A stretch of DNA of 12,992 nucleotides from Campylobacterota bacterium. GTDB lineage: Bacteria; Campylobacterota; Campylobacteria; Campylobacterales; Sulfurimonadaceae. The position numbers and the translations under genes are program-made. The DNA lies in assembly GCA_034717975.1 (NCBI GenBank), contig JAYEMF010000130.1:1-12992 (forward strand). Reading direction: 5' to 3'. Below, piece by piece: positions 10,858-12,992 of the stretch; the first letter of the stretch is position 1, and each line of letters opens with the position of its first letter. Under the pieces are notes generated by a model. The model was not told the origin of the DNA. It did no database searches and saw only the letters and a list, made by a program, of their open reading frames with translations.

Positions 10858-11856
10858 TTGAACTACACAACCGAAGAGTTGAAAGATAAGATTAATGTGC
10901 TTAAAGAGAAATTGGACGTAACGGTGGTCGCCCACTTTTATCAGCGCGATGAAGTGTTTGAGATGGGAGATATCACGGGTGATTCCCTCGAACTGGCGAA
11001 AAAGACACGTGATGATGACGCGAAATTTGTCGTCTTCTGCGGGGTCGGTTTTATGGGACAGAGTGTGAAAGTGCTCAGTCCCGAAAAGCGTGTGGTGATG
11101 CCTAAAGTCGCCTGCTGTGCGATGGCACGTATGATCGATTCGCTTTACTTTGATGACTCGGTCAAGGCGATGGAAGAAGCGGGTATCAGTAAAGAGAATA
11201 TCCTGCCGATCACCTACATCAACTCCAACGCCGATGTCAAAGCCAAAGTCGGAGAGATGGGAGGCATGGTCTGTACCAGTTCCAATGCCAAACTGATCAT
11301 TACAACAGCGCTTAAAGAGGGGAAAAAGATATTGTTTGTACCCGATCGCTGTCTGGGACAGAATATTGCCAATCAGATGGGCCTCAAATCCGCCGTGATC
11401 GGCATCGATGAGAATATTGCCGATGCGGATATTATCTGTTATGACGGTTTCTGCTCGGTACATCAGCTTTTTACCGTTGAAGACATAGCGTTCTACCGTA
11501 AAAAGTTTCCGGGTATTTTGATCGCCGTCCACCCTGAATGTGATCCGGCGATCTGTGACAAAGCCGATTTTGTCGGTTCCACATCGCAACTGATCCGTTA
11601 CATCGCCGAACTTCCCGAAGATCAAAAAGTGGCTGTCGGGACAGAGTTTAACCTGGTCAACCGTCTGCGCCCGAAAAACACCTATGTGCTCTCTTCGACA
11701 AAACCGGAGTGCCCGACGATGAATGAGACGACGCTAGAAGACCTCTACCTGACACTCAAATCGATCGATGAGGGCGAACCGCTCAATGAGATCGAGATTG
11801 ATGAAGAGACTGCGAAATGGGCCAGAATAGCATTAGAGCGGATGATGGCGCTATGA
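10858..11856 (+). CDS. nadA: quinolinate synthase NadA
   Basis: AHFYQ, GDSLEL, FCGVGFMG, CCAMA, YINS, CTSSNA, PDRCLG, CSVH, HPEC, GSTS, GTE, CPTM. TTG start with AAGGA SD at 10847-10851. Confidence 0.97.
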   Translation: MNYTTEELKDKINVLKEKLDVTVVAHFYQRDEVFEMGDITGDSLELAKKTRDDDAKFVVFCGVGFMGQSVKVLSPEKRVVMPKVACCAMARMIDSLYFDDSVKAMEEAGISKENILPITYINSNADVKAKVGEMGGMVCTSSNAKLIITTALKEGKKILFVPDRCLGQNIANQMGLKSAVIGIDENIADADIICYDGFCSVHQLFTVEDIAFYRKKFPGILIAVHPECDPAICDKADFVGSTSQLIRYIAELPEDQKVAVGTEFNLVNRLRPKNTYVLSSTKPECPTMNETTLEDLYLTLKSIDEGEPLNEIEIDEETAKWARIALERMMAL

Positions 11857-12665
11857 TCGACTTTATAAAAGCGGCATTGGCAGAAGATGTAGGCCGGGGT
11901 GATCTTTATGCGAGAGTCTCCGAACCGACTGAAGCTTCTGCAAAGATCATTGCCAAGAGTGACGGTGTACTTGCCGGACAGACCTATATTGATCAGCTGT
12001 GCGAGATGGATAAGATCAATGTTGAGTGGTCTTTCCAAGATGGTGAACGTTTTGTGAAAGGTGATGTTATCGCTGAGTTTAAGAGCGATTCACACACCCT
12101 TTTGCGGGATGAACGCACGATCTTGAACATGATGCTGCATGCCAGTTCAATCGCCACACTGACACGTAGCTATGCAGATATTATTGCGCCTTATGGGACA
12201 AAACTGCTCGACACGCGTAAAACACGTCCGATGCTCCGTCTCTTTGAGAAGTATGCATCCCGCATCGGCGGAGCGGCAAATCATCGTATGGGACTTGATG
12301 ATGCTTTGATGCTGAAAGATACACACCTTAAGACGATTAGTGACCTTGAAAGTTTTATGCTTGAAGCACGCAGGCAGATCCCCTTTACTTCGACGATCGA
12401 GATTGAAGCGGAGACGATTGAACAGGCTAAGCAGTTTATGGCCGTTCATGCGGATATTGTCATGTGTGACAATATGACACCTGAACAGCTCTCGGAAGTA
12501 GTTGCATTTAGAGATGAACATTATCCGTCAGTCCTGCTTGAAGCCAGCGGCAATATTTCACTCGATACGATCGAAAGCTATGCCAAAACCGGTGTGGACG
12601 CGATCAGCAGCGGCTCGATGATCCACCAGGCTAACTGGATCGATCTTTCTATGAAACTGGATTAG
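11853..12665 (+). CDS. nadC: nicotinate-nucleotide diphosphorylase (carboxylating) NadC (start revised to ATG 11853)
   Basis: AEDVGRGD, ERTILN, DTRKTRP, HRMGLDDALMLKDTH, IEIE, MCDN, EASGNI, GVDAIS. ATGA overlap with the nadA stop. Confidence 0.97.
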   Translation: MIDFIKAALAEDVGRGDLYARVSEPTEASAKIIAKSDGVLAGQTYIDQLCEMDKINVEWSFQDGERFVKGDVIAEFKSDSHTLLRDERTILNMMLHASSIATLTRSYADIIAPYGTKLLDTRKTRPMLRLFEKYASRIGGAANHRMGLDDALMLKDTHLKTISDLESFMLEARRQIPFTSTIEIEAETIEQAKQFMAVHADIVMCDNMTPEQLSEVVAFRDEHYPSVLLEASGNISLDTIESYAKTGVDAISSGSMIHQANWIDLSMKLD

Positions 12666-12681: not shown

Positions 12682-12685
12682 CGGA

Positions 12686-12826
12686 AAGAGGAAAGGTGAG
12701 AAGGGAAGAGGCAAGAGGAAAGGGGGAAGAGGCAAGAGCAAAGGCTTTAAGTCTCTTATCCCCCTTTTCCTTGATGTCAAAAGCATCAAATCTTTTTTTC
12801 TCTCTTTCCCCTTTCCGCTTCCCCCT
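12686..12826. repeat. inverted heptamer array: purine arm (AAGAGGN, about 9 copies) followed by complementary pyrimidine arm
   Basis: 12686-12747: AAGAGGA AAGGTGA GAAGGG AAGAGGC AAGAGGA AAGGGGG AAGAGGC AAGAGCA AAGGCTT. 12751-12826 contains GTCTCTT, CTCTCTT, TCCCCTT, TCCGCTT, which are reverse complements of the same unit. Confidence 0.85.
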
Positions 12827-12845
12827 GATGCCAAAGGCATCAAAT
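12772..12845 (+). repeat. 20-bp direct repeat, each copy a hairpin
   Basis: TGATGTCAAAAGCATCAAAT (12772-12791) vs TGATGCCAAAGGCATCAAAT (12826-12845), 18/20 identical. The second copy is a perfect TGATGCC-AAA-GGCATCA stem. Confidence 0.8.
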
Positions 12846-12975
12846 GGCTGACGATCAGGAAAAGACCGAAGTAATATCAGTTTTGAACGTAAAAGGAACC
12901 CGTCCCTTTTACTACGCTAAGGCCGCTGTGGCCACTGAAGGAAAATCTTTTCAAGATTTTTATGGGTTCTTCTAA
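12844..12975 (+). pseudogene. 43-aa ORF whose first 9 codons (MADDQEKTE) look like the FlhB N-terminus, then unrelated sequence; probable orphaned gene start or leader ORF
   Basis: ATG GCT GAC GAT CAG GAA AAG ACC GAA then GTA ATA TCA...TTC TAA. FlhB proteins start M(A/S)...EKTE(E/K)PT. The ORF is below the ORF-track size cutoff. Confidence 0.6.
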
Positions 12976-12984
12976 GGAGTTTTC
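12872..12984. mobile_element. putative ~113-bp hairpin-rich inserted element / structured leader between two copies of a gene start
   Basis: Stems GTAAAAGG/CCTTTTAC, GGCC/GGCC, AAAATCTT/AAGATTTT and TCAGT/ACTGA. It ends in TAAGGAG 5 nt before the second ATG. Mobility is inferred, not shown. Confidence 0.4.
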
Positions 12985-12992
12985 ATGGCTGA
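12985..12992 (+). CDS. start of next gene (partial), probably flagellar export protein FlhB
   Basis: Strong SD AAGGAG (12974-12979) then ATG GCT GA.., identical to the first 8 nt of the FlhB-like start at 12844. Only 8 nt are visible. Confidence 0.5.

Follow-up and report, generated by a model that had tools for sequence, protein, structure and literature searches.

The window, which is the whole 12,992-nt stretch of DNA that was analysed, corresponds to positions 1–12992 of contig C130 in genome G000 and stops at a 100-N scaffold gap. Towards its end, the upstream gene nadC (11853–12665, plus strand; TIGR00078, 285.7 bits, above cut-off) is followed by a native spacer (12682–12842), which contains an inverted repeat made of purine/pyrimidine blocks and a small palindrome, both outside the element described here. 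The 3' end of this spacer is common to the empty alleles of two genomes of the same genus. Next comes a 28-nt flhB-like start, ATGGCTGACGATCAGGAAAAGACCGAAG (MADDQEKTE), at 12844–12871 on the plus strand. This copy (S1) is identical to the real flhB start at C130:13594 and is most likely the original flhB start, judging by the native upstream sequence that it retains, as in the empty allele L004. As the preliminary description of this DNA had noticed, the start recurs as ATGGCTGA at 12985–12992 (plus strand), 141 nt after the first, in frame and behind a TAAGGAG. Chance recurrence of an 8-mer, of which about 0.005 are expected per 141 nt, was considered and rejected since full 28-nt copies follow on the contig. 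Contrary to the prediction made there, these eight letters do not open full-length FlhB but are the beginning of a further pseudo-start that is cut by the scaffold gap.

Between the two starts lies insert A, 113 nt long (12872–12984, minus strand), which is a member of an flhB-dedicated subfamily of a GTAG-hairpin repeat. All of its modules are on the minus strand. The 15-nt, A-rich and hypervariable 3' tail (12872–12886) ends at a fixed junction with the duplicated target and adjoins the core (12887–12918), which consists of an AGCGTAG tag, a 22-nt hairpin with a conserved G.T pair, and CGT. A middle small hairpin module (12919–12941; helix 4, with 98% of cells paired) and another hairpin (12942–12960; two-sided changes in five of seven pairs) lead to the adjoining 11-nt putative guide, GAAGAACCCAT (12962–12972), which is complementary in sequence to the flhB junction GAAG^AACCCAC. 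The insert also supplies, on the plus strand, the Shine-Dalgarno sequence TAAGGAG (12973–12979). The reading frame of S1, which was first thought to be abandoned after nine codons, in fact continues through the insert as a predicted 43-codon upstream ORF (uORF; 12844–12975, plus strand) that ends in the TAA of this TAAGGAG.

Past the window, the assembled order is start-A-(gap)-A-start'-(gap)-B-start-B-start-flhB, with starts on C130 at 12844, 12985, 13212 (one difference), 13453 and 13594, all of the full 28 nt from 13212 on. It is the start at 13594 that opens FlhB, a protein of 351 aa (C130:13594–14649; TIGR00328, 419.8 bits, above cut-off), which bears out the earlier proposal that the gene was left intact with a new ribosome-binding site. 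Inserts A and B are both 113 nt long and identical at 95 of 113 positions, and their tails are hypervariable even between the two. An assembly artefact at the scaffold gap, a danger that had been foreseen, does account for part of this order. The second assembled A is an overlap artefact, in which a Logan contig of run X2 spans the first gap with a 227-nt skip and 127 letters fit both sides. However, Logan contigs of X1 and X2 extend from nadC through S1 and A, and the B-start-B junction is visible in contig pieces of runs X2 and X4; the four runs used come from one study and include one that is possibly the source of the assembly. Moreover, the structure is present in 44 other genomes, some of them complete. 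For the start-insert-start structure the artefact is refuted, its probability being practically nil, and the real array is likely S-A-S'-B-S-B-S-flhB, with an uncertain number of B copies. The element disrupts short-read assemblies and misplaces flhB start calls.

The same insertion recurs widely. The element is found after base 28 of flhB in 45 of 156 distinct loci examined, a set that is enriched for filled loci and includes two loci without a parsable start. A strict start-plus-element pattern matches 26 of 301 genomes of the bacterial family, and recurrence at this one flhB site spans six genera. Because a match to this pattern required the codons of the first start to be conserved, genus g2 was resampled without selection (110 of 121 real-start matches), which yielded 26 filled loci, 73 empty ones, eight with the tail only (some borderline) and three with the element and no duplication (one a false call). 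The empty alleles that had been predicted exist in both same-genus relatives (G001 and G002), where the same native sequence lies directly before a single start, and in other genomes too. Several empty/filled sister pairs differ by little beyond the unit. The inserts at flhB are 107–171 nt long, the 3' tail measures 15 nt in 36 of the 45 filled loci, and none carries an enzyme gene or cargo. The insert is thus unlike an att-style element, and it is not the scar of a cassette-exchange site, two ideas raised at the outset. The description of the insert as some 113 bp without terminal inverted repeats or enzyme holds for the copy at flhB. In G008, a different subfamily occupies the same base of flhB; the duplication there measures 96 nt, and this subfamily has a 7-nt complement of its own. 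The inserts of L198 and L441 have a 33-nt extra palindromic module in common, with the uORF frame kept.

On the flhB tree (149 rows, seven truncated rows having been dropped and three false calls relabelled empty by hand; midpoint root), the filled state requires 32 changes, 26 of which are forced by starred branches. A two-state model with gain and loss reaches a lnL of -90.9 vs -103.7 for loss only, where "gain" may include transfer of the whole nadC-flhB interval. Identity between elements tracks identity between the flhB genes (Mantel r 0.57), and only nine of the 26 unselected filled loci have a first start identical to the real one, that of the other 17 having diverged. Much of the inheritance is therefore vertical. 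The notion that both starts are nearly always identical, which came from the pattern-selected set (20 of 25), was abandoned on the unselected count. Separately, we noted the same two changes in the first start (MADDAQITE) in L402, L415, L428, L430, L444, L448 and L465, with variants in L403 and L434; by breaking the repeat, these changes may protect the insert from deletion.

As for the host gene, the pseudo-start opens a predicted uORF of 42–48 codons that ends at the flhB ribosome-binding site in 35 of the 45 loci. The old start codon is kept in all 45, the frame is open to between -16 and +8 of the real start in 35, and the uORF stops at -11 to -13 in 26. In-frame stops are absent from the 39 distinct flhB leaders and present in 11 of 80 non-flhB copies (p=0.015). 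A letter shuffle predicts 6.0 leader stops (P=0.0004) and a column shuffle 1.8, the latter without significance (P=0.11). The kept start codon and the open frame fit a mobile element and also its main rival, namely a domesticated mRNA leader that stems from one or a few old insertions and whose uORF and helix would tune flhB translation. Such a leader would disappear when the repeats recombine, and homologous transfer of the nadC-flhB interval would be its sole way back. This would also agree with the correlated element and flhB distances, with the diverged first start common to several g2 lineages and with a gain term that cannot tell insertion from interval transfer. We nevertheless regard a leader of this kind as possible rather than probable. 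It sits poorly with the 73 of 110 g2 loci that do without the element, with the unrelated subfamily at the same base in G008 and with the identical tandem units that occur in both G000 and G277.

What is new here, to judge by the sequences compared, is a conserved and covarying 11-nt stretch of the insert that is complementary to the insertion junction. In the flhB subfamily, a stretch 11–14 nt before the ATG, with the GTAG-strand consensus GAAGAACCCAC, complements GAAG^AACCCAC. When this putative guide was placed by its first four bases only, which left positions 5–11 for testing in 44 loci, 225 of 308 cells were Watson-Crick pairs against a background of 22%; the remaining cells were 40 wobbles on the GTAG strand, one on the mRNA strand and 42 mismatches. 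Position 9 of the guide follows the target, since T accompanies a T target in nine of nine cases, vs seven of 34 for C with T, and in one case guide and target both have a G. Counted on independent pairs this covariation is 4-0-1 and not significant (p=0.125). In a 23-row alignment 93.7% of the guide helix is paired, and the structure of five helices, which was derived from those same 23 rows, exceeds all 500 shuffles and all slid controls. The helix folds as minus-strand DNA (z -2.9). It also folds on the mRNA, where it encloses the Shine-Dalgarno sequence and the AUG (z -2.1), which suits a domesticated leader: pairing of the region before the Shine-Dalgarno sequence with flhB codons 9–12 would turn the "guide" into an RNA control helix. 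On the other hand, the helix straddles the exact insertion junction, for which a control helix has no need. Since the wobbles of the guide itself are mostly what transitions give, its strand was inferred from the neighbouring hairpins. An 11-nt stretch that is complementary to the exact point of insertion suggests that the element likely finds its target by base pairing.

The insert is one member of a family of dispersed GTAG-hairpin repeats in Campylobacterota, so that the preliminary view of a non-autonomous inserted element with other copies in the genome proved correct. An iterated profile of the insert core has 97 matches in the 2.5-Mb genome G000, four of them within the flhB array. In the 87 of these that could be parsed, a copy consists, on the strand opposite flhB, of AGCGTAG, a 22–23-nt hairpin, CGT and an A-rich tail, the tag being GTAG in 68, GCAG in 12, GTAA in six and GCAA in one. 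Hairpin stems vary between copies, with stem position 8 a G.T pair in 56 of 65. Stem wobbles on the GTAG strand are G.T or T.G 94 times and A.C or C.A only three times, and this GTAG (minus) strand is accordingly the one that folds. On an informal reading, most copies are single or in direct tandem and a few form inverted pairs; in GTAG REPs, the mobile unit is an inverted doublet. Neither a replichore (lagging-strand) bias (43 vs 29, p=0.12) nor an orientation bias towards neighbouring genes (38/44 downstream, 36/43 upstream) was found, and this disregard for gene orientation in the wider family is hard to square with an mRNA leader. A strict family pattern matches 22 of 61 relatives, and its reversed control never matches. 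Among the matches listed, named records are nearly all from free-living Campylobacterota (Sulfurimonas, Sulfurovum, Sulfuricurvum and Sulfurospirillum); viral contigs hold the repeat at one locus. Rfam, at its gathering score, returned nothing except tRNAs.

The family includes copies of quite different appearance, which bring in a second rival, a MITE lineage of the DDE type whose target duplications are long and vary in length, as reported for IS1549 and IS1634. On this reading, the hairpins would be cargo and flhB a hotspot. In G020, a subfamily (L504–L523) has the GTAG core within a uniform MITE, whose terminal inverted repeats measure 15 bp and whose duplications are mostly 7–8 bp long, and it ends 13 nt after the GTAG hairpin. 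In G007 (L044–L063; 69 pattern matches, with tandem arrays of period 71–72 and 103–111 nt), many copies lie between TAGA-type palindromes that resemble IS ends. Furthermore, direct repeats as long and variable as 8–514 bp are described for two IS1634-family elements (PMC2266710). Elsewhere, however, terminal inverted repeats occur at chance level (3/80 copies in G000, null 3%; 0/28 in G033; 12/250 in a mixed set, null about 4%), and the flhB-subfamily copies have neither such repeats nor a fixed short target duplication. The tails also vary strongly, those of A and B included, and a search of five genomes for IS1595, also as a partner of the G020 MITE, found none above cut-off. Since a DDE lineage would also leave unexplained both the covarying guide and the third-position differences at thiC (see below), we consider it improbable.

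Duplications like that at flhB exist at other genes. Although most family copies are without a long duplication, tail-anchored duplications scoring at least 13 accompany 15 of 279 non-tandem copies vs one of 600 mismatched pairs; one of these 15 is a tRNA array and another a tandem copy, and both were later dropped along with two IS-end self-matches. A further set gave three in 77 copies vs one in 400 for the null. In a collection of 21 non-flhB duplications, lengths are 11–96 nt, the tail offset is 9–15 nt in 20 of the 21 and there is no common dinucleotide. The leader pairs with the junction over these 21 (p=0.0009, with a peak 2–6 nt before the junction) and in the 13 strongest (p=0.03); four held-out cases alone, two of which are G020 MITE artefacts, give p=0.08, and pairing at the far side of the duplication is not significant (p=0.19, one flhB row inflated). 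Taken case by case, pairing is strong in only about eight of 19. The same junction-centred pairing at 21 loci other than flhB again argues against a domesticated flhB leader.

General targeting of the 5' ends of housekeeping genes, suggested in the preliminary description, is not what these loci display: the non-flhB duplications read in detail concern mostly gene 3' ends or stop/start overlaps. At thiC, the two gene ends agree over 50 nt and thereafter show 12 differences, 10 of them in third positions. Because both ends evolved as coding alleles, one of them would have arrived with the element. The thiC gene is not a second recurrent site, as it was found in G000 only among 301 genomes. The duplicated 3' ends may thus be allele ends brought in from diverged lineages, to judge by their sequences. 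We also observed duplicated gene 3' ends with mostly synonymous differences at thiC (G000 C67:29560–29900, L394), at C106:57560–57800 and at L525. The gene at C106 we take to be hypD-like, from a motif, and that at L525 is an unidentified gene in G036. Other copies adjoin tRNA gene ends (G000 C111:33898–34587, C34:10575–10646 and C148:38–111), and at C34 the repeated sequence, which starts at the +15 junction, is an entire tRNA of 79 nt.

The family could also be an ordinary GTAG-type REP that was spread and amplified by a lost or unassembled RAYT, its arrays arising by the rolling-circle-like BIME model. The GTAG tag, the imperfect strand-specific palindrome, the high copy number and the tandem arrays of G007 are as expected for such a REP. 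Moreover, REPs often outlast their RAYT (PMC3686654), and REP clusters may be reiterated together with flanking DNA (PMC3733652). However, no RAYT flanked by the repeat was found at 11 Y1/RAYT loci, at the 30 best-scoring loci or at 20 further chosen ones, the RAYT loci read being the best-scoring plus some chosen loci of the 162 positive genomes among 301 searched. RAYT-like genes are present in 15 of 26 filled genomes vs 147 of 275 others, and in the complete genome G011, where the family pattern matches 14 times, no Y1 gene was matched. The cleavage rules of known enzymes also bear on this reading. In E. coli, TnpA-REP cleaves at C^T (PMC3333891), and group 3 enzymes cut at CT or CA as chosen by the GTAG (PMC8266576). 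The duplicated flhB segment itself does begin with CT, but CT is not enriched at the junction (7/86 vs a 6% background), and only two of the 21 duplications start with CT and four with CT or CA. Cutting directed by CT was accordingly rejected as a rule for the junction. Stems that differ among copies are likewise out of keeping with an ordinary REP, and duplicated units followed by element-free resident sequence are not what the amplification model gives (PMC3333891). We therefore judge this reading distinctly improbable.

Searches for other enzymes were equally negative. The repeat is absent beside eight IS110 loci and a TnpB locus, no reverse transcriptase (PF00078) was found above cut-off in five genomes, and a search of five genomes for a Y2 enzyme likewise found none above cut-off, a weak test as its controls matched nowhere. 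Among 350 ORFs that neighbour the element at 120 loci, none recurs in more than three loci, and a simple regular expression found no HUH motif. On C46, C57, C113, C120 and C146 (L033–L038), G000 has five Y1 genes of its own, apparently flanked by terminal inverted repeats (TIRYT-like), together with an IS605-type element whose tnpA is interrupted. No repeat lies beside the Y1 genes or the broken IS605, and the IS605-type locus has no profile match.

Our working hypothesis, which we regard as evenly balanced between true and false, is that the flhB subfamily moves as single-stranded DNA, its site being picked by pairing between guide and junction and the reaction probably being catalysed by an HUH-type enzyme. 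The mobile minus-strand unit would comprise the 28-nt start, a spacer, the guide, the hairpins and the 15-nt tail, and it would be cut 12–15 nt 3' of the GTAG hairpin. The guide would then pair across the junction of an empty or filled allele, with 4 nt in the start and 7 nt in the gene body, and strand transfer by the HUH-like enzyme would join the tail to the resident start, so that the carried or copied start becomes the working flhB start. Since new units would enter at the gene-proximal junction, the older A would be distal and the identical B copies proximal. If the 28-nt repeats recombined, the empty allele would return, and loci would therefore cycle. Because the ribosome-binding site of the old start is still in place, ribosomes would translate across the insert, unwinding the guide helix on the mRNA, and terminate at the new Shine-Dalgarno sequence, which would leave the insertion nearly harmless. 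Against the hypothesis count the negative enzyme searches and the fact that the Logan contigs of the four runs list no empty flhB joint.

A bolder proposal dispenses with a transposase altogether. The element would then be a self-programming homing ssDNA or RNA of some 110 nt, whose variable 5' leader is a retargetable guide and which is driven by a housekeeping enzyme of the host, for example one that acts on incoming transforming DNA. A copy that pairs with a nearby gene end would capture that end and thus become a site-specific invader. We think this unlikely. Whatever the enzyme, if the 11-nt stretch does set targeting, a 110-nt non-coding element would amount to a minimal programmable insertion system. 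Such a repeat can use the start codon of its host gene to occupy an operon that the cell needs, and it can import diverged gene ends, as at thiC. With one defined target, filled and empty alleles by the dozen, a guide that covaries and a junction that is fixed, the family is a rare natural readout of site choice, and it makes guide-swap tests direct. The in vivo spread and site choice of REP-like repeats are described as poorly understood (PMC8266576).

The element is REP/PATE-like, with likely guide-directed homing. In PATEs, a cut lies shortly 3' of a second hairpin, as is proposed for the repeat described here. The guide of IS200/IS605 PATEs is a tetranucleotide, and their insertion duplicates no target. 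In contrast, the guide proposed here is linear, 11 nt long and spans both sides of the junction, 11–96 nt of target are duplicated or carried, and neither a matching TnpA nor an autonomous partner with the same ends was found. A guide that lies 5' of a hairpin and pairs with the cleavage site is known from IS200/IS605 (PMC8266576), the likeness here being one of sequence complementarity. As in GTAG REPs, REPINs and BIMEs (PMC3733652, PMC3333891, PMC8266576, PMC3116915), GTAG marks the 5' foot of a hairpin that is imperfect and strand-specific, and there are many extragenic copies and tandem arrays. Unlike GTAG REPs, the repeat has no flanked RAYT that we could find, and its junctions do not obey the CT rule. 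Most of its copies are singlets that carry additional modules, its target duplications are long and fixed at one end, and it has a putative 11-nt site-specific guide. The Sulfurovum REP of PMC4690160 is a different sequence, while the Sulfurovum GTAG family of PMC3733652 may be the same repeat. In the literature covered, which included few subscription papers, neither this repeat nor a REP that combines a guide with long duplications is described.

Other systems share single traits with it. Integrative elements restore their target gene through attP identity. Like these, the element inserts within a gene, carries a replacement end, leaves precise empty alleles and accretes in tandem; unlike them, it measures about 110 nt, lacks an integrase and cargo, and has an identity of variable length with a junction fixed to the hairpin. 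Group II introns and retroposed RNAs differ in that a search of five genomes found no reverse transcriptase and that no Rfam intron domains were found here. Mycobacterial MIRUs (PMC12548453) are also short repeats at a start codon, where an ORF coupled to the downstream gene limits harm; in MIRUs the ORF is coupled at -4, whereas the uORF here uses the duplicated start of the host gene, and the structures are unrelated. Long target duplications of variable length are shared with IS1549/IS1634 (PMC2266710), which are, however, autonomous DDE elements with terminal repeats, and the flhB subfamily is neither autonomous nor provided with such repeats.

Two further repeats of G000 were noted in passing. 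The purine/pyrimidine-block inverted repeats (GGGAAGA-type heptamers) of the nadC spacer form long imperfect hairpins at 12682–12826 of the window and on many other contigs, and this stretch has 75 BLAST matches in the genome, in many spacers. A separate abundant MITE or IS end (GGGCACCTCTAAAAAC), about 270–330 nt long, has 75 motif matches, many of them near contig ends, and probably breaks the assembly.
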